From contig CAZYXV010000018.1 in assembly GCA_964651475.1 (NCBI GenBank), positions 11,474 through 75,473 of the forward strand: a DNA stretch of 64,000 nt. Direction: 5' to 3'. Every line of letters starts with the position of its first letter. The stretch's first letter is position 1. The notes beneath the pieces were generated by a model, which was not told the DNA's origin, made no database searches, and saw nothing but the letters and a program-made list of their open reading frames with translations. The stretch is from an uncultured Anaerolineae bacterium (GTDB lineage Bacteria; Chloroflexota; Anaerolineae; Fen-1058). A program made the position numbers and the translations under genes. Below, one piece after another: positions 24,204-55,926 of the stretch.

Positions 24204-24300
24204 CTAGCAGGCTGTCGGAGAACCCCGCTCAGGCCGCCGTCCTCGGCGGCCCGCACGCGCCGGGGACGGCGCGTAGAGCGCCCCTCCGACAAGCTCCTAG
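24204..24300. mobile_element. MITE-like palindromic element (family A), CTAG-flanked
   Basis: CTAG-CAGGCTGTCGGAG...CTCCGACAAGCTC-CTAG with internal hairpins CCGCCGTCCTCGGCGG and GCGCCGGGGACGGCGC; near-identical copy at 35335..35424. Confidence 0.7.
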
Positions 24301-24309
24301 GGAGATTAG

Positions 24310-26469
24310 ATGGATTTACTCGAAGGACTCAATGATCAACAACGGGAAGCAGTAAAAGCGCAGGACGGACCTATATTGGTCCTGGCCGGGCCTGGCTCGG
24401 GCAAAACGCGCGTGCTCACCCAACGCGCGGCTTTTCTCATCCAGGAGCGCGGCATTGCGCCGTATCACATTGTGGCCGTCACGTTTACGAATAAAGCCGC
24501 GCGAGAAATGCGCGAGCGATTGGCGACGTTGTTGGGCGAGCCGCGCGTGGCCGATCTGACGCTGGGAACGTTTCACGCTACGTGCGCCCGCTGGCTGCGG
24601 CGCGACGGGCCGCACGTTGGCCTGGAGCGCGATTTCGTAATTTACGATACGTCGGACCAGGAATCGCTCGTAAAACAAGCCATTCGAGATTTGGACCTGG
24701 ACGACAAGAAATACAAGCCGTCCGCTCAGTTGGGCAAAATCAGCAATGCCAAGAATGAACTGATCGGCCCCGAAAGCTACCCGCCCGCCAGCTATGCCGA
24801 AGAGATCACGCGCCGCGTGTACACGCGCTACCAACAACTCTTGGTAGATAACAATGCAGTAGATTTTGACGATTTGCTCACGCTGGCGGTGCGCTTGCTC
24901 AACGAAAATCCAGCCTTGTTGCGGCGTTACCAGGAACGCTACACACACGTCCTGGTGGACGAATTTCAAGATACGAACACCGCACAGTACACGCTGGTGA
25001 AACTGCTGGCGGGCCAACACGCCAACGTGTTTTGCGTGGGCGACGAGGATCAATCCATTTACAAATGGCGCGGGGCGGATTCTCGCAACGTGCAGCGATT
25101 TTGCCAGGATTTTCCCGGCGCCGTCAAGATTCTGCTGGAACAAAATTACCGCTCGACGCAAACGATCCTGGAGGCGGCGCGGCGTGTGATTGATCACAAC
25201 AGCCGACGCACGCCCAAGCAATTATTCACGCGCCTGGAGCAAGGCACACCGATTGTCGTCCACGAGGCGTACAACGAAGACGACGAGGCGCTGTATGTAA
25301 TAGATACGATTACGGAACTGGTGAGCAAACGGCTGGCGCGCGCCGGAGACATTGCCGTGATGTATCGCACCAACGCCCAGTCGCGCGCGTTAGAAGACGC
25401 CTTTATCCGCGCCGGCATGCCGTATCGCCTGGTGGGCGCCACGCGCTTTTACGCCCGCAAAGAGATTAAAGACGCGCTGGCTTTTCTGCACCTGATTCAC
25501 AATCCCAACGATTCAGTGTCTCTGAGCCGCATCATCAACGTGCCGCCGCGCGGCATTGGCGCCAAGACGTTAGCAGATGTGATGGAACAGGCGCGCCAAG
25601 CAGAAGCTTCGGCGTACCAGGTACTGCGTTCAATCAAAGAGGCACAAGGACAAACCAGTGTGTTCGGGCGCTCTACCAAGGCGCTGCTTGGTTTTGTAGC
25701 CATGCTCGACGGTTGGATCACGCGCAAAGCCCAGTTGGGCGCGGGTGAACTGCTCGACCTGATTCTCAAAGAGACGGGCTATGGCCGTTACGTCAACGAT
25801 GGCACCGAAGAAGGTCAGGAGCGATGGGAAAACGTCCAAGAGCTGCGCGGCGTAGCCGCCGATTACACGCACGCCGTGAGCGACGATCCCCTGGCCGATT
25901 TTTTAAGCGACGTGTCGTTGGTTTCCGACCTCGATACGCTCTCCGACACGGCAGACGCACCCACGTTGATGACGCTGCACAGCGCCAAGGGCCTCGAATT
26001 CCCCGTGGTCTTTATCGCCGGGATGGAAGAGGGCACGCTGCCGCACAGCCGCTCGTTGGAGGATCGCGAAGAGTTGGAAGAAGAACGCCGCTTGTGCTAC
26101 GTGGGCATGACGCGCGCCAAGCAACGCCTGTACCTGTCGTATGCCTTCCGGCGCACGGTGTGGGGCGAGAATAACGCGCGCCAGCCCAGCCGCTTTCTGG
26201 GCGAGATTCCACCCGAATTGATGGCGGGCAATTTCCTCAAGCCGCGCGCCAGCCGGCCAAGCGAGGCTGTCCCCCCTCCCCGCCAGGAAAAGAAACGCGC
26301 GCCCGAGTTCGCCCTCGGCCAGCGCGTGCGGCACGCCAAATTTGGCGAAGGGATGGTGGTGGCAAGCAAAATGCAAGGGGGTGACGAGGAGATCACCGTG
26401 GCATTCAAAAAAGCCGGCATCAAGCGACTGCTGGTCAGCTTTGCCGGCCTGGAAAAGCTGCCGGGGTAA
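24310..26469 (+). CDS. pcrA: ATP-dependent DNA helicase PcrA/UvrD
   Basis: AGPGSGKT, TFTNKAA, VDEFQDTN, VGDEDQSIY, LEQNYRS, YRTNAQSR, MTLHSAKGLEF, EERRLCYVGMTRA, C-terminal Tudor-like GQRVRHAKFGEG. Confidence 0.97.
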   Translation: MDLLEGLNDQQREAVKAQDGPILVLAGPGSGKTRVLTQRAAFLIQERGIAPYHIVAVTFTNKAAREMRERLATLLGEPRVADLTLGTFHATCARWLRRDGPHVGLERDFVIYDTSDQESLVKQAIRDLDLDDKKYKPSAQLGKISNAKNELIGPESYPPASYAEEITRRVYTRYQQLLVDNNAVDFDDLLTLAVRLLNENPALLRRYQERYTHVLVDEFQDTNTAQYTLVKLLAGQHANVFCVGDEDQSIYKWRGADSRNVQRFCQDFPGAVKILLEQNYRSTQTILEAARRVIDHNSRRTPKQLFTRLEQGTPIVVHEAYNEDDEALYVIDTITELVSKRLARAGDIAVMYRTNAQSRALEDAFIRAGMPYRLVGATRFYARKEIKDALAFLHLIHNPNDSVSLSRIINVPPRGIGAKTLADVMEQARQAEASAYQVLRSIKEAQGQTSVFGRSTKALLGFVAMLDGWITRKAQLGAGELLDLILKETGYGRYVNDGTEEGQERWENVQELRGVAADYTHAVSDDPLADFLSDVSLVSDLDTLSDTADAPTLMTLHSAKGLEFPVVFIAGMEEGTLPHSRSLEDREELEEERRLCYVGMTRAKQRLYLSYAFRRTVWGENNARQPSRFLGEIPPELMAGNFLKPRASRPSEAVPPPRQEKKRAPEFALGQRVRHAKFGEGMVVASKMQGGDEEITVAFKKAGIKRLLVSFAGLEKLPG

Positions 26470-35334: not shown

Positions 35335-35424
35335 CAGCAGGCTGTCGGAGAACTCCGCTCAGGCCGTCGTCCTCGGCGGCCCGCCGGAGACGGCGCGTGG
35401 AGCGCCTCTCCGACAAGCTCCTAG
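35335..35424. mobile_element. MITE-like palindromic element (family A, copy 2); supplies the stop codon of the ygeY-like gene
   Basis: CCAG-CAGGCTGTCGGAGAACTCCGCTCAGGCCGTCGTCCTCGGCGGCCCG...CTCTCCGACAAGCTC-CTAG; the minus-strand TAG stop at 35421-23 lies in the terminal CTAG. Confidence 0.7.
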
Positions 35425-40696: not shown

Positions 40697-42313
40697 ATGA
40701 TGCGTTTGCAAACCTGGTTGGGACTGGCAATTGTTGCCGCGATTATAACCGGGCTGTTACCAGCCTGGGCGTTTGCCGCCCCTCCCGCCCAAGAAGAAAT
40801 CGGACCAAATTTGCTGGTGGACGGCAACTTTGAGTCTCCCCCTGTGATACAAGATGGCGTCGGGGAGGTACAGGTCGCGCCTGGTTGGAGGGCGTGGTAC
40901 CTTGACGTGCCGCCCTCTTACGTCGTTCCTCCTCCGTCGTGCTATAACGCCAACGGCGGAAAAAGAGATAATGGCTGTTACTGGATGCGGCCCGAGTTCC
41001 GTGATACTATCAGACAATCGCACAGCAACCGAGTACACGGCGGGGATCGCTCCCAGAAATATTTTTCCTTCGGACGCATGCACGAGGGCGGATTGTATCA
41101 ACAAGTTAACAACGTCCCCGCCGGCGCCAAACTCCGCTTTTCCATTTACATCCAGGCGTGGATGTGTAGCGATGCTTCATCTGGCAAATGCAACGACGGG
41201 CGAATTTCGGATGCACCCGCAGACATGCACCTGCGTGTTGGCATTGATCCAACTGGGGGAACTAACCCCTTCGGGCCCAACATCGTATGGTCGGGTGAAG
41301 TGGCTGCCTGGGATCAATGGGTACGCTTCCAGGTAGAAGCGATTGCCCAATCCTCCACTGTGACAGTATTCACCCATTCGCGCCCCGAGTGGGATTGGGC
41401 GCGTATGAACAATGATGTTTACCTAGACGATGCCGAACTTGTCACGGTGGGACCCATTCCCACCCCGACCCCCGAAGCCGCGGCCGTGCAGCCTGCGGCT
41501 GACAACCAACCCCAGGTCCAACCCCAAGCGCAGGTACAACCTATCACCAAGGCCAACGGCACGACGGTGCACCAGGTTAGTTCTGGCGATACGTTGCTGG
41601 GCATTGCGCTGGCGTATGGGGTCACGGTGGATGAAGTCGTGGCATGGAATCGCCTCAATCCGGGCGATTTTTTGCAAATCGACCAGGAGCTTGTCGTCAA
41701 AGCGCCTGCGGGGTGGGTCGCCCCTGTTCAGGCCGCCGCCAATCCACCTGCCGCAGCAGCGCAGTCCACGCCGGCCGCCCCAGCAGCGCCCACGCCCGCG
41801 CCGCAGCCTCAAGCTGTAGCCAATGCTCCAACCTCGCCGGCTGGCTTGTGCGTGGTGGCGTTTGACGACCAGAACATGAACTCGCTCTACGAAGACAAAG
41901 AAGGCCTGGTGGCCCAGACTCAATTTGATGTGTTGAGCAGCGACGCTGTCATCAAATCGTATACCACCGATGGCAGCAGTGAACCTTATTGCTTCTTTGA
42001 TTTGAACCCCGGCACCTACATAGTTTCGGCCAGGCTTGCCAGCGGGTATAAAGCCACATCCGTAGAAAAGACCGGTGTATCGCTTGCTGCGGGACAGACC
42101 GTTAACGTCGCTTTCGGCAGCATCAGCACCGGCAAACAGCCGGCCAGCAAAGCCGGAGATAAGGCGGCCGCACCCGTGTCAGCCGCTAGCCAGGCTCAAC
42201 AATCCTCACCCAACATATTTACGCGCATGGGAGGGTTCCTGGTGGGCGCAAGCGGCATCATCGTACTTGGGTTGGCAATTGTGGTCGGCCTGGCAATGTC
42301 TCGCCGCCGCTAA
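40697..42313 (+). CDS. Surface protein: signal peptide, beta-sandwich (CBM-like) domain, LysM, SdrD-B-like domain, C-terminal TM anchor
   Basis: NLLVDGNFE..., GIDPTGGTNP; HQVSSGDTLLGIALAYGVTVDEV...GDFLQIDQEL (LysM); AFDDQNMNS..E...G; hydrophobic tail + RRR. Confidence 0.75.
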   Translation: MMRLQTWLGLAIVAAIITGLLPAWAFAAPPAQEEIGPNLLVDGNFESPPVIQDGVGEVQVAPGWRAWYLDVPPSYVVPPPSCYNANGGKRDNGCYWMRPEFRDTIRQSHSNRVHGGDRSQKYFSFGRMHEGGLYQQVNNVPAGAKLRFSIYIQAWMCSDASSGKCNDGRISDAPADMHLRVGIDPTGGTNPFGPNIVWSGEVAAWDQWVRFQVEAIAQSSTVTVFTHSRPEWDWARMNNDVYLDDAELVTVGPIPTPTPEAAAVQPAADNQPQVQPQAQVQPITKANGTTVHQVSSGDTLLGIALAYGVTVDEVVAWNRLNPGDFLQIDQELVVKAPAGWVAPVQAAANPPAAAAQSTPAAPAAPTPAPQPQAVANAPTSPAGLCVVAFDDQNMNSLYEDKEGLVAQTQFDVLSSDAVIKSYTTDGSSEPYCFFDLNPGTYIVSARLASGYKATSVEKTGVSLAAGQTVNVAFGSISTGKQPASKAGDKAAAPVSAASQAQQSSPNIFTRMGGFLVGASGIIVLGLAIVVGLAMSRRR

Positions 42314-42328
42314 GAGAGGTTTGAACCG

Positions 42329-43732
42329 ATGCGCAAGTATGTAAGCCTGATCATAGCCAGTACATTGCTCGCCATCGCGCTCGTTCCGGGGCAAATCGCT
42401 CAGGCCACGCCCTCTTTCCAGGGCAGCATTTCTTTGCAAAACGCCGGTTTCGAGGGAGGCACCACCTCTGGGTGGTCGTGGTGGTCCAAGGCTGAAGAAA
42501 TTGTCAGGATTGGCAAAGATATTGACCTGAACAACTCTTGGTATACCCCACAATATGTTCCTAACAATCAAGGGATTCGCGTCCACGGCGGCGGTCAGTC
42601 CATTGAGATTAACAACGAGTACCGCAAGTGGCGAGGTGGGGTGTACCAAACGGTGAGCGCCGCGCCGGGCACTAGAATCGTCTTTAAAGTTTGGGCGCAG
42701 GGCTATACCAGCTCGGGCGAACTGATGCGGGTGCGCGCCGGCATTGACCCCAATGGAGGCACGAGCAACGGCGCAGTGACCTGGTCAGGCACCGCGTCGG
42801 TAGGCGAATCGTATATCCAACTCGTCTCACCCGAAGTCACAGTTGGCAGCGGCGGCAAGGCCACCGTCTTTACGTGGGCCGAAACGCCCAGCCCAGCCAA
42901 TAAAACAGCGGTTTTTTTCGACGACGCGGCGGTCGAGATTACAGGGCAGGCGCAAGCTCAAGCCACCACACCAGCGCAGCCCGTCCAACCCACATCGCCG
43001 CCAGTGGTGGCGCAGCCTATCAAAACGGCTCAACCACAGCCCGATGGCTCGCTTGTCTACACCGTTCAATCCGGCGATACGCTGGGCGCAATTGCGATGG
43101 CCTACGGCACTACCGTTGACAGTATTATGCAGCTCAACGGCCTGTCGAGCACCATCATCTCGGTTGGACAACGCCTGACCATCCGGGGAGCAACGGTGCC
43201 GCCTACAGCCACCACTCCGCCCACCCTGGCCGCGCCACCCACGCTGGAGGCAACACCGGTTCCGCCCACTGGCCAGATTTGCATCAAAGCCTATAACGAT
43301 CGGGACGGCAATGGATTACCGGGCGGCGTTGGAGAGGACTTGTTGCCAGGCGTCGTGTTTGCCCTATCGAACAGTCAGGGCACGTTGAAGAACTATACCA
43401 CCGACGGCCTCAACGAACCTTACTGTTTCCTGGATTTGTTGCCAGACACGTACACAGTCAAGATTGTATCACCCACAGGCTACAGCGCGACTACCCCAGA
43501 GGTTTGGAGCCTGGGGGTAGCAGGTGGGCAAAAGATTGACGTGAGTTTTGGCGCCAGACGCGGCGGTGCAGCGCCTACCGACGCCCCCACGGCCTCCCCA
43601 TCGAGCAGTGGTGGGGGGGGAGGCTCTTCGTTTCTGGGCAGTGTCGGACGCATCATCCTGGGCGGCCTGGCCGTGATTGTGCTGATTGGCCTGGGCGCGG
43701 CCGGGATGTATTTTGTCGCAATGCGGCGCTGA
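42329..43732 (+). CDS. Paralogous surface LysM protein with the same architecture
   Basis: LQNAGFEGG, GIDPNGGTS; YTVQSGDTLGAIAMAYGTTVDSIMQLNGL...ISVGQRL; AYNDRDGNG; TM + MRR. Confidence 0.78.
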   Translation: MRKYVSLIIASTLLAIALVPGQIAQATPSFQGSISLQNAGFEGGTTSGWSWWSKAEEIVRIGKDIDLNNSWYTPQYVPNNQGIRVHGGGQSIEINNEYRKWRGGVYQTVSAAPGTRIVFKVWAQGYTSSGELMRVRAGIDPNGGTSNGAVTWSGTASVGESYIQLVSPEVTVGSGGKATVFTWAETPSPANKTAVFFDDAAVEITGQAQAQATTPAQPVQPTSPPVVAQPIKTAQPQPDGSLVYTVQSGDTLGAIAMAYGTTVDSIMQLNGLSSTIISVGQRLTIRGATVPPTATTPPTLAAPPTLEATPVPPTGQICIKAYNDRDGNGLPGGVGEDLLPGVVFALSNSQGTLKNYTTDGLNEPYCFLDLLPDTYTVKIVSPTGYSATTPEVWSLGVAGGQKIDVSFGARRGGAAPTDAPTASPSSSGGGGGSSFLGSVGRIILGGLAVIVLIGLGAAGMYFVAMRR

Positions 43733-45946: not shown

Positions 45947-47641
45947 ATGCAAAAGTGTAAAAGATCAAATAAAATGGGACAAGCCAATCCAAACAACAAG
46001 CCTGCCTCTACAAAGGCCGCTTCACCGCACAACTCGCGTCAGAGCACACCGCCGGCAAGGTCGCGCTCTCTGATAACGGATCTATTGAACATCGGGCTGG
46101 CGCTTGTCGCCATTATGCTGCTCGTCTCAATCCTCAGATTCTTGTGGCAAGATGTATCTTCAAGCCTGCCTGCCATTGCAGCGCACAATGGCAAAACGGC
46201 AACGCCGGATGTGTCTACACCGACCCATACCAACACGCCCCCACCCACGGCCACGTTAACTTGCACGCCTACGCGCCGGCCCACAAACACACGCCTGCCC
46301 ACGCTCACGCCGCGCCCCACTGCCACACCGACCAGCATCCCCACGGACACACCTGTCTCGCCGCGCGGCGCATATCCCCCTACCGTAACGCCCGACGCCA
46401 GCTTTGTCATCAGCAGCACGCCCGTTCCCGAAGCAGCGCCGCTGGTCGAGTTTCCGCAGGGAACCATCAACATTGTCCTGCTCGGCAGCGACAAGCGCCC
46501 CAACGAAGGAGGGTGGCGAACTGATACCATCATCGTCGCCAGCGTCAATCCCAATGCGCCCTCTGTGACCATGCTCTCCATCCCGCGCGATTTGTGGCTC
46601 TACGTCCCCGGCTGGATGTTTCAACGCGTCAACCTGGCCGACCAACACGGCGCCAGCGTAAACTTTCCCGGCGGCGGGCCGGGCCTGCTCAAGCAAACCA
46701 TCCAATACAACCTCGGCGTCCACGTAGACTATTACGCCCGCGTGGACTTTGCCGGCTTTATGAATATCATTGACGCCCTGGGCGGCATTGACGTCGTCGC
46801 CGATTGTCCCCTCGTGGACGTCTTCCCCGATGACCCCATCACCGAAGACCCCACCATCACCGGCACCATCTCCATCCAAACCCCTGGCGTCTATCACCTG
46901 GACGGCAAACACGCCTTGTGGTACGCTCGCAGCCGCTACACCTCCCCCGGCGGCGACCTCGACCGCAGCCGTCGTCAACATCGCGTCTTGCGCGGCCTCT
47001 GGAACAAGGCCACCGAACTCGACGCCGTCGCTCGCCTCCCCCAACTGTGGAGCCAACTCTCCTCCTCAATCGAAACCGATCTCACCTGGAACGACATCGT
47101 CTGGCTCGCTTCTCTCACCCCTCGCCTCGACAACTCTCACATCCGCAGCGGCTTTATTGACGGCGACGCCCTCCAGCCCTGGACCACTCCCTCTGGCGCC
47201 TCTGTCTACCTCCCCAACACCGAGCGTATGCTAGAACAAGTCCAGGATACCTTCAACCCTCCCTCCAACATCGCCGCACAAGCCCCCACCCAGATCGAAG
47301 TCTGGAACGGCACCCCCTTCACCGATTGGGACGTCCTCGCCACCGACCGCCTCCAGTGGGCAGGCTTTTGGGTCACTTCCCTCCGCTCCGCCGACCGCCT
47401 GGACTATGCACGCTCTCAAATCATTGATTTCTCCACCACCCCCAAGGGCAGCCGCCTCCCCTCTCTCTTGCGCCTCTTCCAACTCACCCAGGCCGACGTC
47501 GTCGCCCAGCCCGACCCAAACAGCCCCGTCCCCTATCGCCTCATCGTCGGCGCCAATTACAACCCTTGCGTGCGCCCCGCTTTGCCCCATCGCCCCACCC
47601 CTACACCGACACCCGCGCCTACAGACACCCCCACTCCCTGA
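45947..47641 (+). CDS. LCP (LytR-CpsA-Psr) family protein with Pro/Thr stalk and LytR_C domain (copy 1)
   Basis: TM, PT-rich stalk, NIVLLGSD, RTDTII, MLSIPRD, VDYYARVDF.GF, LDGKHALWYARSR, DLDRSRRQ, IEVWNGT. Confidence 0.92.
   Translation: MQKCKRSNKMGQANPNNKPASTKAASPHNSRQSTPPARSRSLITDLLNIGLALVAIMLLVSILRFLWQDVSSSLPAIAAHNGKTATPDVSTPTHTNTPPPTATLTCTPTRRPTNTRLPTLTPRPTATPTSIPTDTPVSPRGAYPPTVTPDASFVISSTPVPEAAPLVEFPQGTINIVLLGSDKRPNEGGWRTDTIIVASVNPNAPSVTMLSIPRDLWLYVPGWMFQRVNLADQHGASVNFPGGGPGLLKQTIQYNLGVHVDYYARVDFAGFMNIIDALGGIDVVADCPLVDVFPDDPITEDPTITGTISIQTPGVYHLDGKHALWYARSRYTSPGGDLDRSRRQHRVLRGLWNKATELDAVARLPQLWSQLSSSIETDLTWNDIVWLASLTPRLDNSHIRSGFIDGDALQPWTTPSGASVYLPNTERMLEQVQDTFNPPSNIAAQAPTQIEVWNGTPFTDWDVLATDRLQWAGFWVTSLRSADRLDYARSQIIDFSTTPKGSRLPSLLRLFQLTQADVVAQPDPNSPVPYRLIVGANYNPCVRPALPHRPTPTPTPAPTDTPTP
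46661..47612 (+). repeat. 952-bp direct repeat, copy 1 (identical by eye to 48480..49431)
   Basis: Offset 1819; alternative-frame ORFs 46770/48589, 46857/48676 and 46918/48737 translate identically. Confidence 0.9.
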
Positions 47642-47831: not shown

Positions 47832-49454
47832 GTGAAAATGGAGCGCCAACTTTATCGAAAAGACAGGCAACACACCCAGCCCCAGCTTGCCCCACGTCGC
47901 CTACTCATTCCCAATCTCAACGCGCCGCGGCTGAACTCGCACACTCTGTTCGTCAAGCTATTGAACATTGATTTGGCGCTCATTAGCGTCCTACTGTTTG
48001 CCTCAATCCTTGGCAGTCCATCACCAGACCTGTCATCTGCCAAAGTGGCCGCGGCGCAAAGTGTGTATTTGGACACAGCGGCGCCAACTCTAACCTCTAC
48101 ACCCACTTCCACACCTACTCCCACACCTACCGCTACTTCTACACCCACCTCTACCCCCCGGCCAACAACAACGCCTACCAGAACGCCTCTCCCAGCGCCA
48201 TCCGGCGAGTATCCTCCCACAGTTACGCCCAACGCGGCGGCAGTACCCAAACCGGCGCCGCTGGTCGAGTTTCCGCAAGGAACCATCAATATTGTCCTGC
48301 TCGGCAGCGACAAACGCCCCAAGGATGGCGAGTGGCGAACCGATACTGTCATCGTCGCCAGCGTCAACCCCAACGTTCCCTCTGTGACCATGCTCTCCAT
48401 CCCGCGCGACCTGTGGCTCTACATCCCCGGCTGGATGTTCCAACGCGTCAACCTGGCCGATGTGCATGGCGCCAGCGTGAACTTTCCCGGCGGCGGGCCG
48501 GGCCTGCTCAAGCAAACCATCCAATACAACCTCGGCGTCCACGTAGACTATTACGCCCGCGTGGACTTTGCCGGCTTTATGAATATCATTGACGCCCTGG
48601 GCGGCATTGACGTCGTCGCCGATTGTCCCCTCGTGGACGTCTTCCCCGATGACCCCATCACCGAAGACCCCACCATCACCGGCACCATCTCCATCCAAAC
48701 CCCTGGCGTCTATCACCTGGACGGCAAACACGCCTTGTGGTACGCTCGCAGCCGCTACACCTCCCCCGGCGGCGACCTCGACCGCAGCCGTCGTCAACAT
48801 CGCGTCTTGCGCGGCCTCTGGAACAAGGCCACCGAACTCGACGCCGTCGCTCGCCTCCCCCAACTGTGGAGCCAACTCTCCTCCTCAATCGAAACCGATC
48901 TCACCTGGAACGACATCGTCTGGCTCGCTTCTCTCACCCCTCGCCTCGACAACTCTCACATCCGCAGCGGCTTTATTGACGGCGACGCCCTCCAGCCCTG
49001 GACCACTCCCTCTGGCGCCTCTGTCTACCTCCCCAACACCGAGCGTATGCTAGAACAAGTCCAGGATACCTTCAACCCTCCCTCCAACATCGCCGCACAA
49101 GCCCCCACCCAGATCGAAGTCTGGAACGGCACCCCCTTCACCGATTGGGACGTCCTCGCCACCGACCGCCTCCAGTGGGCAGGCTTTTGGGTCACTTCCC
49201 TCCGCTCCGCCGACCGCCTGGACTATGCACGCTCTCAAATCATTGATTTCTCCACCACCCCCAAGGGCAGCCGCCTCCCCTCTCTCTTGCGCCTCTTCCA
49301 ACTCACCCAGGCCGACGTCGTCGCCCAGCCCGACCCAAACAGCCCCGTCCCCTATCGCCTCATCGTCGGCGCCAATTACAACCCTTGCGTGCGCCCCGCT
49401 TTGCCCCATCGCCCCACCCCTACACCGACACTAACACCTACCGCCCCTCCATAA
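47832..49454 (+). CDS. LCP family protein (copy 2)
   Basis: Same motifs as copy 1; divergent N-terminus and stalk. Confidence 0.92.
   Translation: MKMERQLYRKDRQHTQPQLAPRRLLIPNLNAPRLNSHTLFVKLLNIDLALISVLLFASILGSPSPDLSSAKVAAAQSVYLDTAAPTLTSTPTSTPTPTPTATSTPTSTPRPTTTPTRTPLPAPSGEYPPTVTPNAAAVPKPAPLVEFPQGTINIVLLGSDKRPKDGEWRTDTVIVASVNPNVPSVTMLSIPRDLWLYIPGWMFQRVNLADVHGASVNFPGGGPGLLKQTIQYNLGVHVDYYARVDFAGFMNIIDALGGIDVVADCPLVDVFPDDPITEDPTITGTISIQTPGVYHLDGKHALWYARSRYTSPGGDLDRSRRQHRVLRGLWNKATELDAVARLPQLWSQLSSSIETDLTWNDIVWLASLTPRLDNSHIRSGFIDGDALQPWTTPSGASVYLPNTERMLEQVQDTFNPPSNIAAQAPTQIEVWNGTPFTDWDVLATDRLQWAGFWVTSLRSADRLDYARSQIIDFSTTPKGSRLPSLLRLFQLTQADVVAQPDPNSPVPYRLIVGANYNPCVRPALPHRPTPTPTLTPTAPP
48480..49431 (+). 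repeat. 952-bp direct repeat, copy 2
   Basis: Starts AACTTTCCCGGCGGCGGG and ends CTACACCGACAC, as in copy 1. Confidence 0.9.
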
Positions 49455-49633: not shown

Positions 49634-50377
49634 ATGGCTAACGAAGCTGAATTGATCGAGCAGGTTGAGAACCTCAAAACGGCCCTGGCGGCGGCTCAAG
49701 CCGAATCATGGAAACTCGTTCGCTCGGTCTGCCACGAATTGCGCCTGCCGCTTAGCTCGATCAAAGGTTATAATGATTTGATACCGTTGATGGGGCCGGT
49801 CAGCGACCAACAAAAGGATTTTGTTACGCGCATCAAGAAAAACGTGGCGCGCATGAGCGGCATGATTGCCAACCTGCACGACCTGGCGTTTATGGGTGAA
49901 GGTCATTTTATCCTCAAGCCTGTAGCATTGTCTCTGAAAGAGGCCATTGAAAAAATGTGCGACGAAATGCAACCCGCGGCAGGTGAACGTAGCCACACAC
50001 TCAACTATAGTTTGCCTCCCTCGCTGCCCGCTGTACAGGCTGATCGCGAACGCACAGAGCAAATCTTGCGCATCCTGATCGAAAATGCCTGCTGGTATAC
50101 TCCGCCCGGTGGGCAAATCACCGTTGCCGCGCAGCAAACCGACGGCGACCAAATTCAAATCAGCGTCACCGATACCGGCATCGGCGTGCCCGAAGAGGAA
50201 CGCGAGAAACTCTTTACGCTGTTTTTCCGCAGCGATACCCCGCTGGTGCGTGAGCAACCCGGCGCTGGCATGAACCTTTATATGGTGCGGCGCTTGATCG
50301 AATTGATGGGCGGCGCGTACGGCGCCGAGTTTGAGGCCGGCTCTCGTTTTTGGGTCAGCCTGCCGATAGCCGGCTAA
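49634..50377 (+). CDS. Sensor-less histidine kinase (HisKA + HATPase_c)
   Basis: HELRLPLSSIKGY, QILRILIENACWYT, VTDTGIG, FFR, GAGMNL. Confidence 0.9.
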   Translation: MANEAELIEQVENLKTALAAAQAESWKLVRSVCHELRLPLSSIKGYNDLIPLMGPVSDQQKDFVTRIKKNVARMSGMIANLHDLAFMGEGHFILKPVALSLKEAIEKMCDEMQPAAGERSHTLNYSLPPSLPAVQADRERTEQILRILIENACWYTPPGGQITVAAQQTDGDQIQISVTDTGIGVPEEEREKLFTLFFRSDTPLVREQPGAGMNLYMVRRLIELMGGAYGAEFEAGSRFWVSLPIAG

Positions 50378-50490
50378 TATCACAGCGTGCTACCAGCCCA
50401 CGACCCTAGCCGCGATGCGCCAAACAGCGTGTTGACCCGGCTGGCGCGGCGTGATAAGATAAAGCAAGATTTGCGTAAAGGAGACAAGTA

Positions 50491-50697
50491 ATGGAAAACA
50501 AAACGTTTATTGCACCCAACATTTCGTGCATGCACTGCGTTCACACAATCAAGACCGAATTGGGCGAGTTGCCCGGCGTGACCTCGGTAGAAGCCCAGGC
50601 AGACACAAAGCAAGTCACGGTCAGTTGGCAGGCGCCCGCCACCTGGGATCAAATCAAGGCGGCACTGGTCGAAATCGGCTATCCGGCCGCAGAATAA
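50491..50697 (+). CDS. Heavy-metal-associated (CopZ-like) chaperone
   Basis: ISCMHC, GV..VE, IGY; 68 aa with RBS AAGGAG. Confidence 0.9.
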   Translation: MENKTFIAPNISCMHCVHTIKTELGELPGVTSVEAQADTKQVTVSWQAPATWDQIKAALVEIGYPAAE

Positions 50698-50718
50698 CAA
50701 CGAACGACAATCAACGCG

Positions 50719-50758
50719 CGACCAATGACTGACGGCGACAATCGTTTGTCATTGGTCG
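50719..50758. repeat. Hairpin / possible terminator after copZ
   Basis: CGACCAATGAC / GTCATTGGTCG. Confidence 0.55.
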
Positions 50759-50910
50759 TTTGCCGTTAAAGGCACTCGCGCACCCGCACGGGCGGCAATA
50801 TCCAAGCTATCGGGCAAAGTGCAAGGGCGTGGCGATGTGGTACAATAAAGGCACAAAACGCCTTGGGCAAAACCGCGCTCGAGCGCGGTTCCGGAGTGGT
50901 TGGAGGGAAC

Positions 50911-52152
50911 TTGAAAATAAAGTGCCCGTCGTGTCTTGGGCTGGCCGAAGAGACAGAGCTAAAAGATAACAACTATGTCTGCCCCATACCAGGCTGTCAA
51001 AAACCCATCCCGCCTTCGTATGTGGCCGACTATGACTTGCACAAGCCTGTCATCATCAGCGCGGTGGGGCTGCGCGGCCATGGGAAAACGGTATATTTTG
51101 CCTCGGTCTTTCGGGCCTTGTACTTTTTGACCGAGTGTTGGCCCGAGTTTTATCACACGCCGCTCGACGACACGGCGCTCAGAAAAGTCAAAGAAGAAGC
51201 CGCGCGGCTGGATCGCGGCGAGTTGCCCGCGCCCACACCGTTCAATCCCAACAACCCCCCCGAACCCGTGTTGATTCGGGTGACTGGCATCCCGATGTAC
51301 CCCAAGTGCACTTTGCTTTTTTACGACGTGAGCGGAGAAAGCTTTACGGCCGAAATGGAAAAAGTGGGCAGCTATGTGCCTTTTTTGCAACAGGCGCAGA
51401 CGGTCCTGTTTTTGATCAGCGTGCCCGACCTTTCGTCCCGGCCTGCGCTGGATATGGAGGAATTGCTCAGCCGCTACATCGGCGGCATGCGGTATCAACG
51501 CATCAATATCAAAAAACAACATCTGGTTGTGGTCTATACCAAGGCGGACCAAATGGAGTTAGGCTCTGGCTGGCGAGACCTGGACGCCTATCTGCGTAGA
51601 GGGCTGGGAGACGGCATGGAAGACCCGGAAGCCTACCGGAAAAAATTAGTTTGGACGTCTGACCGGCTGCGCGACTATACGCGGAACGAACTCAAGGCGC
51701 ATCAATTCCTGGCCAAAGCCAGCGGCAACTTTGAAAGCGTCACCTTTTCCATCGTCTCTGCCCTGGGCGCAAGCCCTGAAACAGGCGCCAATGGCAAGCA
51801 GCGCGTGATGCAGGTCGCACCCATCTCCTGCCGGATCATGGATCCGCTGTTGTGGGCGGTCGAAAACTCGCAGCCTCGCTGGAAACAGGCACTGTGGTGG
51901 AAAAGAAACGGGAGGAAAATTCTCTTTCTCACCCTCCTGTTTGAAATCAGCAGCGTCTTGTGCAGCATTATGGGGGTGCTGCTGAGCTTGCAGCTCAGCA
52001 CGAATTTGTTCACATGGAGTGAAAGGGGGCAGTGGATGCCCACGCGAACCATTTTGGAAATATCTGGGGAAATTGGATTTGCGCTTGGAACAGTGGGGGT
52101 GTTGTTGGCGTTTCCGCTGCTGCTCAAAATGGTCAAAGAGTGGCTGAGTTGA
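50911..52152 (+). CDS. Zn-ribbon + TRAFAC-class GTPase (DO-GTPase-like) with C-terminal TM helices
   Basis: CPSC...CPIPGC; G1 GLRGHGKT, G3 FYDVSGE, G4 YTKAD, G5 VSALG; two hydrophobic C-terminal segments; TTG start after GGAGGG. Confidence 0.8.
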   Translation: MKIKCPSCLGLAEETELKDNNYVCPIPGCQKPIPPSYVADYDLHKPVIISAVGLRGHGKTVYFASVFRALYFLTECWPEFYHTPLDDTALRKVKEEAARLDRGELPAPTPFNPNNPPEPVLIRVTGIPMYPKCTLLFYDVSGESFTAEMEKVGSYVPFLQQAQTVLFLISVPDLSSRPALDMEELLSRYIGGMRYQRINIKKQHLVVVYTKADQMELGSGWRDLDAYLRRGLGDGMEDPEAYRKKLVWTSDRLRDYTRNELKAHQFLAKASGNFESVTFSIVSALGASPETGANGKQRVMQVAPISCRIMDPLLWAVENSQPRWKQALWWKRNGRKILFLTLLFEISSVLCSIMGVLLSLQLSTNLFTWSERGQWMPTRTILEISGEIGFALGTVGVLLAFPLLLKMVKEWLS

Positions 52153-52161
52153 GAGGTGACC

Positions 52162-54393
52162 ATGTCATTCTGCTTTGACCGAACGGGCTTTCCTCTTTTT
52201 TTTATACCCGATCTGGCAATTGAAGTGCATCTTTTGCCGGTGACCTGGGCGCAATTAAAAAGCTACACGGCGCAAGCCGGCGTTTCCCAGGCAGATCAAT
52301 GGTGGCAAGACGCCCCTACCACCATTCAAGGCATAGCCGCAGGCGAACTAGAAAAGCTGTTCGTAACCGGGATTTTGCCGGAAGAATCGCTGGCGTTCGC
52401 CAGGTGGATGGGAGAAGGGTTCGACCTGCCAACGCTCGACGAGTGGCGCGCCATCTATCGCGCTCTTGACTGTGAGCCTATCTCTGTATGCCAATCTATG
52501 CTCCAATCTGTCGACAATCCCGCTCGCGCGGTTTTGGAAGCGTTACTGGCGCAAACTCAAGCCCAATCATTGCTGGACCTCTCTTTGATGCGGGGGGGAC
52601 TCCTGGAATGGGTCAGCCAAGATACGGAATGGCTTGGCCGGGGGCAGCCGCGCCAGGCATTTTTCCCCAATCTGTTCGACCCACTTTCGGACAAAGACGA
52701 CCAAATCAGGCCCATTCAAATAAAACGCTCGCGCTACTTTGGCTTTCGACTGGTGAGACGCAACGTCAGGCCAGTCACAGAGGCGGCCGTGAATGTGCCC
52801 GCCGGCCAGCACGTTTTCACGAGCGTGGAAAAAGAACAATCGCCCCAGGGCAAAGAAGGCTTTCAAACGCTCTTTTACACCCGCTCCGTTTTGTCAAAGA
52901 GCGAGGCCGAAGATATTGAAACACGCCTGGTCTACTCCTTGTCCGAAATTGAGCCGACGGATCGAATTTTTTTCACCCTATCGAGCGGCAAGGCAGTGAC
53001 GACCCAAATCGTACCCCTGGCCGAACCGGATCGTTTTGGACGCAGAGGGCGCTACCTGGCCCACAGCCTGATATTTGCTCCGGGGGCTTTTGCCCAATCC
53101 GGCGCCGACCCGTTTTACATTTTCAGGCACTTTCCCTTTATCGCGGATGTGGGCGAGGCGCTCAAGAGCGGCAATTACAAAACGGGCGACATGGGCATCG
53201 TCGTCCGCGAGGCTTGCGCCGAGCCAGCGCACACCGTCCAGGCCGCCACTGGCTGGCCAACGGCAGATTTAAAGCAACTGGCCCTGCTGGCTTTGCAAGC
53301 GGAACATCTGGCTCGCGAGCGCTCGGCTGTGGCCTTTGTGGGTGAACCCGCGTCGGTCGAAACTGCCCTCGAAGCCGCCTTTCTGGCCGTGCCCACTCCC
53401 CTCCGCCCGCATTGCACATTCGACACATACTTTTATCATTGTAACCTGGCGAACACGTATTTCTGGGGCGTGGGCTTGCTAGAGCCGCCAAACGACCCCC
53501 GCTTCATTGCGGTTGACACACGGTCGCGCCAGGTCTTGAACGTGGCGTTAAATCCACAGACAGCTTATGAACAGTGGGTTGTAGATCAGCTTGAGCCAGG
53601 GAACCTGAACCTTATTGCCCACTGGAAAGATTATGCTTTTGCCTTGTGTGAATGGTTAGATGGCCGCAGCGCGTGCGATACCTCCCTGGTGGAAGAATCG
53701 CCCCAGGACATTATCGAGTCCACTTTTCAAGCCAATGCTCGCCAGGTGCAAGAGCTGCTTCACAACAAGCTGCTCAAGGATGAGCAATTGCCGCCCCGGC
53801 TGGTCAACCGCATCTCTGAGCAAGTTTACAGACAAATGCGGGCCATCGAGCACTATAGACGATTGCGGCAAGGGTTCGAACTACCCCAGCTTTTAAAGAT
53901 ATTGTACGAGGTTTACAAGGCCAGAGAATTTCGGCCCCCTCAGCGCGAAGAAATCCAAGATTTGGGAGTGCTGGCTGGGAAAATCGAGCATCGCCCCCTG
54001 CGCGCGCTCCACGCCTGCTGGAGCGACCTGCGCCAAAAACTGCGCCGGGAACTGGAGCATCTGAGCCAAGACGACTATCGCGAGTTTGTACGCACCGCGC
54101 TGCGCGCCGGCCTTTTGGATGATCCCCTGGCATTCCTCGCGCCAGTGCGCGGAGCCGTGTTCCTCGATCTCTACCTGGAGGTTTGCCAGGAACACGAGTG
54201 GAGCGCCCTGGTCAAGGCGCTGTTAGCATCCAGAGAAACCGATAGCCTGGCCCGGCTGGCGCCGCGCGTCTCTGGATGGCCGGCCAGGGAACTGCGATCT
54301 CTGCACAAGATGATTGAAAAACGTCCCGACGTCCCTGAATTATTCCGGCAGGCCGTTAGCGAAGCCGTAGCCAGCCTGCCGCCCGATCAATAG
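52162..54393 (+). CDS. Fusion of a degenerate FGE-sulfatase/SUMF1-like domain, a GAP1-N2-like domain and a helical tail
   Basis: PVTWAQ, FARWMG..FDLPTLDEW, GGLLEWV, YFGFRLVR (FGE-like); then FTSVEKEQSPQGKEGFQTLFYT...D.FGRRGRYLAHSLI (GAP1-N2-like), RPHCTFDTY. Confidence 0.65.
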   Translation: MSFCFDRTGFPLFFIPDLAIEVHLLPVTWAQLKSYTAQAGVSQADQWWQDAPTTIQGIAAGELEKLFVTGILPEESLAFARWMGEGFDLPTLDEWRAIYRALDCEPISVCQSMLQSVDNPARAVLEALLAQTQAQSLLDLSLMRGGLLEWVSQDTEWLGRGQPRQAFFPNLFDPLSDKDDQIRPIQIKRSRYFGFRLVRRNVRPVTEAAVNVPAGQHVFTSVEKEQSPQGKEGFQTLFYTRSVLSKSEAEDIETRLVYSLSEIEPTDRIFFTLSSGKAVTTQIVPLAEPDRFGRRGRYLAHSLIFAPGAFAQSGADPFYIFRHFPFIADVGEALKSGNYKTGDMGIVVREACAEPAHTVQAATGWPTADLKQLALLALQAEHLARERSAVAFVGEPASVETALEAAFLAVPTPLRPHCTFDTYFYHCNLANTYFWGVGLLEPPNDPRFIAVDTRSRQVLNVALNPQTAYEQWVVDQLEPGNLNLIAHWKDYAFALCEWLDGRSACDTSLVEESPQDIIESTFQANARQVQELLHNKLLKDEQLPPRLVNRISEQVYRQMRAIEHYRRLRQGFELPQLLKILYEVYKAREFRPPQREEIQDLGVLAGKIEHRPLRALHACWSDLRQKLRRELEHLSQDDYREFVRTALRAGLLDDPLAFLAPVRGAVFLDLYLEVCQEHEWSALVKALLASRETDSLARLAPRVSGWPARELRSLHKMIEKRPDVPELFRQAVSEAVASLPPDQ

Positions 54394-54430
54394 CTGCAGG
54401 AGATACATTGTTGGCGCGAAAGGAAATGAC

Positions 54431-54910
54431 ATGCCGAGGCGAGTGATTGCAAACCTGGCTGCCTTTGGAATCGCCTATATTGCTTTGCTGACGGGTTGCA
54501 GCTTGATGGTCGGGCTGACCCTGGGCATGATGATGCGGCCAGCGCCCTCTGCGCCTTTGCCACAACCAACCCCGGTTGAGCAGACCGCCACAGACGCTAT
54601 CCCCTCGCCGCGCGCCACCTCCACGCCGGGGTCCATTCTCATTTTTACATTTACGCCCAGGCCGTCTCTCACGCCGCGACTGAGCACACCCACACCTACG
54701 CCTCCCCCCACCCTGCCCCCGGCATCCGACGGAGAGTGTTCGGTCATTCACGTGGTCGAAGCAGGGGATACAGTGCTCGGCATTGCCCAGCGGTACAACG
54801 TAGCGGTGGATGACATTATGCGCGCAAACGAACTCGAGACAGCCTCGTCCCTGAGAATCGGCCAAAAGCTCGTCATTCCAATCTGCGGAACGGCAACGCC
54901 AGCACCGTGA
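54431..54910 (+). CDS. Membrane-anchored LysM protein with Pro/Thr stalk
   Basis: N-terminal TM; HVVEAGDTVLGIAQRYNVAVDDIMRANEL...LRIGQKLVIP. Confidence 0.85.
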   Translation: MPRRVIANLAAFGIAYIALLTGCSLMVGLTLGMMMRPAPSAPLPQPTPVEQTATDAIPSPRATSTPGSILIFTFTPRPSLTPRLSTPTPTPPPTLPPASDGECSVIHVVEAGDTVLGIAQRYNVAVDDIMRANELETASSLRIGQKLVIPICGTATPAP

Positions 54911-55155
54911 ACACAGAAGAGATCTTCAGACACGCACTTCTGAGCGCACCTACAAGCGCCCCACCGCAAACGTTGCTGGAAAGGGTTGGCCTGGGCATTG
55001 GCTTTCCAGGGAGTGCTCCTCGCGCTCTTGCGCCGCTTTGACCAGGTGATGCGCTGCTGAAACCTATCACAATACTTTTACGTATAACACTACGGTAGGG
55101 AAAAGCGCAGAGCGCCGACGTCCCAAGGCGCATCGAAAAGCAAAAGGAGAGTATA

Positions 55156-55926
55156 ATGGAAGTGCCAATCGTGTCGGCTATCCAGGCGCGGCTTTTTAAC
55201 GGCCGCGCGACCAGTCCGTCAAACGGGCACGCGCTGATTGATCTACGCGGCGTGTTCAAGAGCTACGAAAGCGGCGCGGGAGAGGTGCCCGTATTAAAAG
55301 ACATTAACCTCCAGGTATCGGAGGGCGAATTTATCAGCGTGATAGGACCTTCAGGCTCCGGCAAATCCACCATGCTGAACATGATCACCGGCATTGACCG
55401 CCCCACCAGCGGCGAGGTGTACGTCGGCGGCGAGGCCATACACAAGCTGGGCGAAAACCCGATGGCTCGCTGGCGCGGGCGCAACATCGGCGTCATCTTT
55501 CAATTCTTTCAACTGCTGCCCACGCTGAGCGTTTTGGAAAATGTGGTGTTGCCCATGGATTTCTGCAATCTCTACAAGCGGCGCGAGCGCCGGGAGCGCG
55601 CCATGCACCTGCTGGAGCAGGTGGATATCGCCGATCACGCGCACAAGCTGCCCAGTGGTCTCAGCGGCGGCCAGCAACAGCGAGCCGCCATCGCCCGGGC
55701 CATGGCCAACGACCCGCCGGTGCTGGTGGGCGACGAGCCGACGGGCAACCTGGACACCGCCACCGCCAACGAGGTGTTTGCGCTATTCGACCAACTGGTG
55801 GAGCAGGGCAAAACACTGATCATTGTCACTCACGACCGGCAACTCAGCGGGCGCACCGGGCGGGTGCTCCACCTGGTTGACGGGCGGCTCTACAGCGACA
55901 AACATAACGGCAATGGGAGACACTAG
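55156..55926 (+). CDS. ABC ATP-binding protein, LolD/MacB-type
   Basis: [39 protein letters not shown]. Confidence 0.95.

Follow-up and report, generated by a model that had tools for sequence, protein, structure and literature searches.

The question raised by the locus described here is what kind of system is encoded by three closely packed genes, which specify in turn a GTPase, a two-part fusion protein and a LysM protein, and what such a system might do for its host. The genes lie at positions 50911-54910 of a 64,000-nt stretch of contig CAZYXV010000018.1 from an uncultured Anaerolineae bacterium; the whole of this stretch was analysed and is referred to below as the window. A sequence-only reading had proposed that the three genes form a GTPase-centred conflict module, and had named beforehand, as tests that could refute the proposal, a comparison with protein family profiles and the synteny of the three genes in related genomes. 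Neither test refuted it: what had been noticed in the sequence is confirmed, and the interpretation is supported with some corrections made below. Because the matches to DO-GTPase2 (gene 1) and GAP1-N2 (gene 2) both pass the curated Pfam cut-offs, we place the locus, on this sequence evidence, among the DO-GTPase2/GAP1-N2 systems. These form a large family that is predicted by computation only: the two Pfam entries (PF19993 and PF20013) originate from Kaur, Burroughs, Iyer & Aravind 2020 (eLife 9:e52696, PMC7159879), who predicted GTPase-centric conflict systems. In their account, a TRAFAC GTPase with a glutamate in Walker B, often carrying zinc ribbons and transmembrane segments, is followed downstream by a GAP1 protein with N, M and C domains; systems of the GAP1-N2 type add a fibronectin type III (FNIII) repeat protein, variable components and frequent peptidoglycan-binding fusions, and multicellular lineages, chloroflexi among them, are enriched in such systems (PMC7159879).

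Gene 1 scored 31.7-31.8 bits against DO-GTPase2 (PF19993; cut-off 27) and only 18.9 bits against DO-GTPase1, and the DO-GTPase2 profile was matched by every one of its aligned relatives (60/60). Within its open reading frame (ORF; 50863-52152), we took the TTG at 50911 as the true start, rather than the upstream TTG at 50863, because a GGAGG motif occurs at 50902-50906 and because the relatives P0096, P0097 and L043 begin with MKIKCPSC. The Cys4 ribbon, the G1, G3, G4 and G5 motifs and the tail of two transmembrane helices that had been noticed in the sequence were all recovered by alignment and a hydropathy scan. The ribbon cysteines (C5, C8, C24 and C29) are invariant in a 9-sequence alignment and near-invariant over 60 sequences. 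The GTPase motifs, comprising G1 (G53-x4-GKT60, Walker A), G3 (D139-x-x-G142, then E143), G4 (T210-K-A-D213) and G5 (S283-A-L, residues 283-285), are invariant or near-invariant among the 60 relatives; a glutamate after Walker B is the family hallmark of DO-GTPases (Kaur et al. 2020, PMC7159879). The hairpin tail is kept in P0096, P0097 and L043, and the alignment contains no second zinc ribbon, of which GAP1-N2 systems usually have two. The gene 1 profile yielded no sequence-level link to solved structures, only weak traces of the P-loop motif. The profile match and the conserved motifs show gene 1 to encode a P-loop GTPase of the DO-GTPase2 family, predicted to be held in the membrane by its C-terminal helical hairpin. 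No other GTPase gene was found in the whole 64-kb window. The earlier suggestion that a single GTPase gene is unusual fails against the published survey, in which two copies occur in only 38% of systems (Kaur et al., PMC7159879).

Gene 2 starts at an ATG (52162; its ORF opens with a GTG at 52156), 9 nt past the gene 1 stop, and its product has no hydrophobic segment in the hydropathy scan. It scored 30.2 bits against GAP1-N2 (PF20013; cut-off 24) over residues 214-322, a family matched by 42 of 43 GAP1 relatives, and the motifs from which a GAP1-N2-like segment had been suspected (..HVFTSVEKEQSPQGKEGFQTLFYT.. and ..PDRFGRRGRYLAHS..) fall on near-invariant columns of the family. Conserved parts are two loops in GAP1-N2, QH..VE...SP....GFQTLF and D..GR.GRYLAH, and a C..FDTYF..CN motif in the middle domain. 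Pfam GAP1-M gave weak matches in five of the 43 relatives (best E = 0.0038) and in P0402, and GAP1-C matched none of the 43. An AlphaFold2 (AF2) model of the full protein resolved three confident parts (residues 210-340, 345-478 and 482-740), with a predicted local distance difference test (pLDDT) score mostly above 90 over residues 210-740; the N-terminal domain came out poorly in this run owing to the shallow alignment in that region, and was modelled separately as described below.

What kind of fold this GAP1 core has was addressed by structure comparison. The predicted GAP1-N2 elements (strands E210-222, E233-239, E267-272, E278-286 and E297-305; helices H246-254, H307-323 and H330-336) follow the longin order and not the Roadblock permutation, as defined in PMC3747258. 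A Foldseek search of the PDB placed DENND10 first (8p0v_M; E = 5.3e-3, probability 0.98) and also returned DENND1A in complex with Rab35 (6ekk_A; probability 1.00, TM-score 0.38). The other top matches were FLCN/FNIP2 (6nzd_H, 8dhb_J, 6ulg), C9orf72-SMCR8 (7o2w) and TagF (6iz8, 9t0n, 2qnu). Probabilities of the best matches were 0.9-1.0, PAS/LOV domains ranked after this DENN/TagF group, and the DENN, folliculin and C9orf72-SMCR8 modules together with TagF were the sole coherent fold matches in the PDB. A search of the viral fold library (BFVD) gave heterogeneous matches only (probability at most 0.38), and neither gene 2 nor the 43 relatives had a Pfam DENN or longin match. TagF is longin-like according to the literature, and longin domains are PAS-like in fold; a literature search found no link between TagF and DENN. 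At present the modelled GAP1 fold is best read as a DENN-module-like architecture, with scores that are coherent but weak.

Whether GAP1 proteins, gene 2 included, are true prokaryotic DENN-type modules, acting as an exchange factor or arginine-finger activator of the DO-GTPase, is a further step that we put forward only tentatively and consider doubtful on balance. The DENN/folliculin/C9orf72 regulator class is regarded as a eukaryotic invention: there are "no longin domains in prokaryotes" according to PMC3747258, and PMC3521125 describes DENN and d-DENN as "only known in the DENN module". Were the proposal true, GAP1 operons would be a prokaryotic counterpart, or possible source, of these regulators, and at the locus studied here such a module would be wired to peptidoglycan sensing via the LysM partner. 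A DENN-like GAP1 fold, if it holds, would bear on the origin of the eukaryotic longin/DENN GTPase regulators; it is a matter for the whole family and, in our view, the most interesting lead to come from this locus.

The N-terminal 201 residues of gene 2 were modelled alone from 81 sequences (pLDDT 89.6), a combined alignment of fusion and stand-alone proteins having been discarded after MAFFT misaligned it. As the sequence-only reading had suspected, the model has an FGE/EgtB-type fold. The 50 highest-ranking PDB fold matches are without exception members of this superfamily (best E = 1.7e-3, probability 0.99, TM-score 0.4-0.5), including FGE, EgtB, SenA, OvsA, PvdO, ToxD, CalU17, CarF and the variable proteins of diversity-generating retroelements (DGRs). 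The Pfam FGE-sulfatase profile (PF03781) gave 17.7 bits over residues 25-96, under its cut-off of 23.3, and the sequence contains the hallmark motifs LPT..EW, VEW and GFRLVRR; the profile of the domain has no sequence-level link to solved structures beyond weak traces of the LPT-EW motif. The first 204 residues retrieved 154 relatives at E <= 0.001. Among the 120 listed, nearly all are stand-alone proteins of ~200-230 aa with 40-50% identity, and many have a recorded PF03781 match; for fused or HEAT-fused relatives, the best E-value of such a match is 4.2e-7. Elsewhere the domain is joined to HEAT repeats (P0091) or to a ClpA-like ATPase (P0092).

Could this domain be an active enzyme, of the formylglycine-generating or sulfoxide-synthase type, so that the GTPase would regulate a modification reaction? 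NCBI labels relatives as 'SUMF1/EgtB/PvdO family nonheme iron enzyme', and the fold itself matches FGE and EgtB. Against this, the domain has just ~200 aa, the gene 2 score for PF03781 stays under the cut-off, and none of the cysteines or histidines is invariant or near-invariant in the 81 aligned family members, in agreement with the earlier remark that a catalytic Cys pair was not evident. The invariant positions are instead P26, Q31, E64, E75, W82, W95, G146, W150, G161, P163, R164, G194 and R196, that is, residues of the Trp, Pro, Gly, Arg, Glu and Gln types. The metal site of EgtB, moreover, relies on a DinB domain, which gene 2 does not have. We consider an enzymatic role highly improbable, and read the domain, from its model, as a compact non-catalytic binding domain. 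Diversification of the domain by a DGR was also considered and rejected: the domain is conserved, the 64-kb window holds no template/variable repeat pair and no reverse transcriptase, and no repeat in it touches gene 2.

To what extent is this arrangement shared by other genomes? The gene 1 and gene 2 proteins each have hundreds of homologues. In a profile search of 1.84 billion cluster representatives (E <= 1e-3), the GAP1 core of this clade alone accounted for 832 clusters at 50% identity. Relatives of gene 2 mostly measure ~548 aa and cover just its C-terminal 71%; full-length fusions of the gene 2 type were found only in P0002 (a Thermoflexales metagenome-assembled genome) and P0003 (a JGI metagenome). 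Among the best 150 of the 832 clusters, the window protein alone has an N-terminal offset of ~210 residues (two others have 46 and 96), and the variable extensions of the family are otherwise C-terminal. A scan of metagenomes for further fused loci returned one 1.3-kb contig, on which the two genes are separate. The fused clade comprises three complete loci, namely the window and loci L001 and L043, and one that is incomplete at a contig end (L044), where a GTPase with 75% identity is followed after 7 nt by an ORF opening MSFSFDKTGFPL, an FGE-like N-terminus. The FGE-GAP1 fusion is rare.

In a scan of 185,579 species genomes for GAP1-only patterns, 37 loci were found, distributed patchily over more than eight phyla and one archaeon. 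They occur in Anaerolineae, Caldilineaceae, Chloroflexia, Dehalococcoidales, Armatimonadota, Thermodesulfobacteriota, Rhodothermales, Gemmatimonadota, Aminicenantes, Thermoguttaceae, Clostridia and one Methanoperedens archaeon. A survey of these loci with hidden Markov models (HMMs) identified 25 non-redundant species-level loci that have a GTPase, an FGE-like and a GAP1 gene, almost always with the FGE-like gene separate and directly upstream of GAP1. Mean pairwise identities of the three proteins are 0.52, 0.45 and 0.42, and their pairwise distances are correlated (r = 0.76-0.93). Given this co-occurrence, the similar identities and the correlated distances, the ~200-aa FGE-fold protein is a constant, co-inherited core part, and not a variable effector, of a distinct clade of ~30 species genomes from several phyla. 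In that clade it takes the place, judging by the gene contents, of the usual FNIII protein; no fn3 family was found among the neighbours in the window, L001-L005 and L043. The idea of the FGE-fold domain as the built-in sensor of an unusual variant survives in part: it is indeed fused here, while in the clade it is a constant component and normally a gene of its own, and "FGS" (FGE-sulfatase-fold) effectors have been described in some planctomycete GAP1-N2 systems (PMC7159879). The fusion implies that the FGE-fold and GAP1 proteins contact each other, and as a Rosetta-stone clue it suggests that the stand-alone FGE-fold proteins of the ~30 related systems bind GAP1.

The third gene begins 37 nt past gene 2. 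That it encodes a membrane LysM protein was borne out: it scored 49.1 bits against LysM (PF01476; cut-off 20.9) over residues 107-150, and its N-terminal hydrophobic segment is followed by a Pro/Thr-rich linker and then by LysM. The GTPase, fusion and LysM genes proved syntenic, as the earlier reading would have it, in L001 and L043, the two complete loci most similar to that of the window. There, a GTPase of 414-420 aa, the fusion gene and LysM occur in this order amid flanks unlike those of the window (DnaN downstream and FTHFS/DUF166 further upstream, as against HisKA and HMA upstream and a MacB-type ATP-binding cassette (ABC) transporter downstream in the window). The three LysM orthologues share 48-49% identity, AY.ALLTGCSL in the anchor and the cysteines C103 and C152 are invariant, and the anchor is conserved to the same degree as the ectodomain. 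As L001 and L043 have their flanks in common and count as one context, the three LysM-linked genomes represent two flank contexts. In more than 30 other related loci of the HMM survey, a LysM gene is not adjacent to GAP1; L034 has one ~7 kb off. The linkage of LysM to the other two genes is upheld for the three closest genomes and not beyond them: it is real and lineage-specific. It fits a wider cell-wall theme, as SH3_3 domains are joined to a GTPase with a transmembrane segment in P0179 and to GAP1 with a transmembrane segment in P0399, and as peptidoglycan-binding fusions were reported by Kaur et al.

These data also bear on the possibility that genes 1 and 2 by themselves are the system and that the LysM protein is a bystander wall protein, kept downstream through shared ancestry. 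This would account for the >30 related loci with no LysM gene beside GAP1, for the single context to which the common flanks reduce L001 and L043, and for the compact pairs of L009, L022 and L028, which consist of a GTPase (423 aa, with a transmembrane tail) and GAP1, with neither an FGE-like gene nor a third gene; LysM proteins are, besides, frequent in the genome region around the window locus. It accords poorly with an orthologue that, at 48-49% identity including the anchor, keeps its position and a 14-37-nt spacing despite differing flanking genes, with the lack of any promoter-like site seen before gene 3, and with the SH3_3 domains fused to GTPase or GAP1 in other relatives. We regard a bystander role for LysM, which would be compatible with surveillance as well as with housekeeping, as distinctly unlikely.

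The three genes are co-oriented and span 4 kb, with intergenic gaps of 9 and 37 nt, which agrees with the tight spacing noted earlier; gaps in the orthologous L001 and L043 loci are 14-43 nt. The string TGTGGTACAAT, from which an extended -10 promoter had been proposed, is present at 50836-50846 upstream of gene 1, and both L001 and L043 have kept its 9-mer TGGTACAAT shortly ahead of their orthologous GTPase genes, at a distance of ~17 nt from the start codon. A consensus promoter scan did not list TGGTACAAT, because a match to the -35 hexamer is missing; its conservation in the two orthologous loci supports a genuine -10 element. No promoter-like site precedes gene 3, the sole consensus match (54314-54343) lying within gene 2, and a single operon is the best explanation for the arrangement. 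The gene 1 leader further contains a perfect 20-nt palindrome, AACCGCGCTCGAGCGCGGTT, which does not occur in L001 and L043 and may represent either an operator acquired by insertion or a hairpin in the mRNA. A riboswitch or other known RNA was sought there and discarded, as there was no Rfam match at E <= 1 over 50300-55200, and the predicted fold of the leader was no better than that of shuffled sequences (z = -1.1).

Table. Features of the three-gene locus, with positions in the window and the basis of each assignment.
Feature	Position	Strand	Basis
Extended -10-like promoter element TGGTACAAT	50838..50846	+	9-mer read in sequence; function inferred
Perfect 20-nt palindrome AACCGCGCTCGAGCGCGGTT in gene 1 5' leader (hairpin or operator)	50871..50890	+	Sequence
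Gene 1: zinc-ribbon DO-GTPase2-family GTPase with C-terminal two-helix membrane hairpin, 413 aa, TTG start	50911..52152	+	Pfam, alignment
Gene 1 zinc ribbon (C5, C8, C24, C29)	50923..50997	+	9-sequence and 60-sequence alignments
Gene 1 P-loop GTPase domain	51046..51870	+	Motifs in alignments
Gene 1 membrane hairpin: transmembrane helix 1 (aa 336-362), outside loop of ~23 aa, transmembrane helix 2 (aa 386-409)	51916..52137	+	Hydropathy scan
Gene 2: FGE-fold domain fused to GAP1 (GAP1-N2 type), 743 aa	52162..54393	+	Pfam, models, relatives
Gene 2 aa 1-201: compact, probably non-catalytic FGE/EgtB-fold (C-type-lectin-like) domain	52162..52764	+	AF2 model, fold search
Gene 2 aa 210-340: GAP1-N2 part	52789..53181	+	Pfam GAP1-N2; model pLDDT > 87
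Gene 2 aa 345-478: alpha/beta middle domain (GAP1-M position; DENN-core-like in model)	53194..53595	+	AF2 model, fold search
Gene 2 aa 482-740: all-helical C-terminal domain (GAP1-C position)	53605..54381	+	AF2, pLDDT > 90
Gene 3: membrane or lipid-anchored LysM protein, 159 aa	54431..54910	+	Pfam; orthologues at same position in L001, L043
Gene 3 N-terminal hydrophobic anchor with lipobox-like LLTGC, aa 5-35	54443..54535	+	Hydropathy scan
Gene 3 LysM domain, aa 107-150, between invariant C103 and C152	54749..54880	+	Pfam, alignment

Many relatives carry additional genes. Extended loci add one to three HEAT-like/zinc-ribbon/"NDTD" proteins, a ClpB-like AAA+ protein, a ~370-aa protein, a Fer4_12/radical-SAM-like protein and UPF0047, and none of these components (HEAT-zinc ribbon, ClpB-like, ~370-aa, radical-SAM-like, UPF0047) is present in the 64-kb window. 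This suggests that the extended relatives form a larger machine of which the window holds the core alone. In L008 (5036-13449), and likewise in L018, L025, L029, L033, L035 and L039, the extended block comprises a ClpB-like AAA_2 protein of ~618 aa, the ~370-aa protein, HEAT-like proteins and a 202-aa Fer4_12/radical-SAM-like protein with weak similarity to pVip. A ~300-aa gene that follows the GTPase gene in relatives was considered as a second, paralogous GTPase and dismissed: its product has no P-loop, and consists of HEAT-like repeats, a zinc ribbon and an 'ATDEDVERFAVQxGNDTD' C-terminal domain. That conserved domain (ATDEDVERFAVQxGNDTDxxRxPRY), which has no Pfam match, stands after a CPxC...GCRxC zinc ribbon and HEAT-like repeats in L015 (4451-5347), L002 (1191-2153), L004 (4647-5684, with paralogues) and at the C-terminus of P0091, and is encoded by one to three paralogues per extended locus.

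Individual relatives show further peculiarities. In a Caldilineaceae locus (L005, 6439-7120, on a contig shared with L032), a PIN-MazE toxin-antitoxin pair has been inserted in reverse orientation between the GTPase gene and the FGE-like gene, and in an Armatimonadota locus (L004, 9662-10964), GAP1 is immediately followed by transposase genes of an insertion sequence (IS). In L044 (4113-5951), which has the closest relative of the gene 1 GTPase, a gene for a protein with HEAT, receiver and GGDEF domains overlaps the start codon of the GTPase gene by 4 nt, which hints at an input from cyclic di-GMP signalling at that locus. The Candidatus Methanoperedens contig (L037) has an FGE-like gene directly upstream of the GAP1-core gene and points to inter-domain transfer of the module.

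What, then, might the system do? We give an even chance to a cell-wall-coupled GTPase switch that serves surveillance, with LysM as a partner, the conflict role, like the sensing of envelope breach or invaders proposed earlier, being one that we infer. The membrane-anchored GTPase would be the switch. The GAP1 core, with its longin-like, alpha/beta and helical parts laid out like a DENN module, would bind the GTPase by way of its GAP1-N2 loops and its FDTYF motif, which are conserved. If longin/DENN regulators are a guide, it would thereby control the nucleotide state of the GTPase, either as an exchange factor or as an activator. A candidate for an arginine finger is the invariant D-x-x-G-R-x-G-R-Y-L-A-H loop found between strands 4 and 5; the longin domains of FLCN, SMCR8 and NPRL2 contain an arginine finger with which the GRxGR loop can be compared. 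The FGE-fold domain would serve for binding, its ligand or partner being a conserved one. Outside the membrane, the LysM ectodomain would bind peptidoglycan, and the status of the wall could reach the switch through contacts, within the membrane, of the conserved LysM anchor with the GTPase hairpin. The output would most likely be envelope surveillance or defence, as proposed for the family.

The same parts can be read as a housekeeping switch for the envelope or for morphogenesis, in which a membrane GTPase and a longin/DENN-like regulator, analogous to the polarity control by MglA-MglB, would regulate wall growth, septation or filament integrity in this lineage together with LysM. It is the cell-envelope neighbourhood and the high conservation of all parts that favour this possibility. 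In the window, the neighbours are two LysM-SdrD_B proteins, PMT_2, two LytR-CpsA-Psr paralogues and the MacB-type ABC transporter, and in L001 a polysaccharide deacetylase gene lies upstream; all components are conserved and co-evolving, none is hypervariable or a toxic effector, PADLOC finds no match, and the system was not found on phage or plasmid records. A housekeeping function is harder to reconcile with so sparse and patchy a system (37 loci among 185,579 species genomes, in many phyla), with accessory genes that differ between loci, with a toxin-antitoxin (TA) pair or IS element in or next to some of them, and with close relatives that have different flanks. The system is, furthermore, present in an archaeon, Methanoperedens, for which no murein would be expected. 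We judge a housekeeping switch to be rather unlikely. Surveillance or conflict is favoured because of the patchy distribution, the variable accessory genes, the TA and IS insertions and the match of the ClpB-like protein to the PADLOC candidates PDC-M37B and DolB.

Several observations nonetheless weigh against a surveillance switch of this kind. A search of the literature turned up no experimental work on DO-GTPase/GAP1 systems of any sort. The trio has no recognisable effector domain, its three components are well conserved rather than hypervariable, which fits a housekeeping switch equally well, and its neighbourhood in the window consists of ordinary cell-envelope genes, not of a defence island. 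The link to LysM rests on three genomes with two independent flank contexts, in a region with three LysM genes within 15 kb. As for the regulator, GAP1-M and GAP1-C went undetected by Pfam in the gene 2 protein, its similarity to DENN modules is weak by score (best E 5e-3, TM-score 0.33-0.38), and the GAP1 profile retrieved nothing from the PDB sequences even at E <= 10. The idea that the locus is a known defence system was rejected, as the three window proteins had no match in PADLOC (PADLOC-DB 2.0). In L008, the proteins of the GTPase, GAP1 and FGE-like types had no PADLOC match either; among the proteins of relatives, the ClpB-like accessory protein is the only one that matches PADLOC candidates. 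Carriage by phages or plasmids was likewise rejected, with no relatives in IMG/VR contigs or PLSDB plasmids.

Some other features of the window were recorded in passing. Just upstream of the locus lies a cell-envelope cluster of LysM-SdrD_B, PMT_2 and LytR-CpsA-Psr (LCP) genes: two adjacent genes for LysM proteins with SdrD_B-like parts (538 and 467 aa; 40697-43732) are followed by a PMT_2 glycosyltransferase gene and two LCP genes. The tandem LCP paralogues (45947-47641 and 47832-49454) contain a 300-nt direct repeat of 90% identity (46419-46718 and 48238-48537), which suggests a recent duplication or gene conversion. Two copies of a GC-rich intergenic element of ~90 nt (24206-24300 and 35336-35424) are 90-93% identical, with one 6-nt indel. 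Their predicted consensus fold has three helices with 30 pairs (-51.4 kcal/mol), and it shows one compensatory change from C-G to U-A and one change from C-G to U-G. The element belongs to no Rfam family, and its first copy ends 9 nt before the ATG of an ORF at 24310-26469.

How does the locus compare with systems that are already known? As a binding module, the FGE-fold domain resembles the FGS domains of MoxR-vWA ternary systems and the DGR variable proteins Mtd, TvpA and TaqVP, which have the same C-type-lectin-like FGE fold in a non-enzymatic role; TvpA (2y3c) and TaqVP (5vf4) were among its fold matches. The gene 2 domain differs from these in having no variable region, in being conserved across phyla, at 41-50% identity, rather than diversified, and in being much shorter (~200 aa). 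With MglA-MglB of Myxococcus the locus shares a prokaryotic GTPase adjoining a PAS-like, longin-related platform protein that controls nucleotide state, a property that is predicted in the present case. Unlike gene 2, however, MglB is a small dimer of single-domain subunits that show the Roadblock permutation, and unlike gene 1, MglA is Ras-like and has neither a membrane anchor nor a zinc ribbon. The DENN-module regulators (DENND1, an exchange factor for Rab35; FLCN-FNIP2, a GTPase-activating protein for RagC; and C9orf72-SMCR8) and TagF are like the predicted GAP1 core in combining a longin-order N domain with alpha/beta and helical parts, and gene 2 is likewise paired, genetically, with a GTPase. 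GAP1 differs in having no detectable sequence similarity to DENN modules and a low TM-score (0.33-0.38), a helical C-terminal part far longer than the d-DENN domain, and a partner GTPase that is neither Ras-like nor Rab-like; homology and convergence are alike possible as the source of the likeness.

The closest counterparts are the GAP1-N2 systems of Kaur et al. (PMC7159879), in whose description LysM, DENN and longin are nowhere mentioned. The locus shares with them a zinc-ribbon GTPase of the TRAFAC type, with a glutamate after Walker B, just upstream of a GAP1-N2 protein, an order that recurs in L001, L043 and L044, as well as membrane association, links to peptidoglycan binding and an occurrence in filamentous lineages such as Chloroflexota. 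It differs from them in that it has no FNIII component, and no effector-type domain in the trio, whereas relatives have variable C-terminal GAP1 extensions and accessory genes. Its GTPase has one zinc ribbon where two are usual, and two C-terminal transmembrane helices; the FGE-fold domain is fused to the N-terminus of GAP1, and not to its C-terminus like the variable fusions known from the description of the family; and LysM, as a partner, has a gene to itself. Neither gene 1 nor gene 2 is covered by an NCBIfam model. With three genes in 4 kb, a fused FGE-fold domain and LysM as a defined extracellular ligand domain, this is the smallest self-contained version of the system that we have seen, and its smallness, the fusion and the LysM domain make it a convenient place to begin biochemical work on the GTPase cycle, the effect of the partner and the coupling to peptidoglycan. 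New with respect to the defining paper are the N-terminal FGE-GAP1 fusion, the lack of an FNIII protein, the GTPase with a hairpin of two transmembrane helices and the separate LysM partner and, more widely, a whole clade in which an FGE-fold protein is the constant third component.

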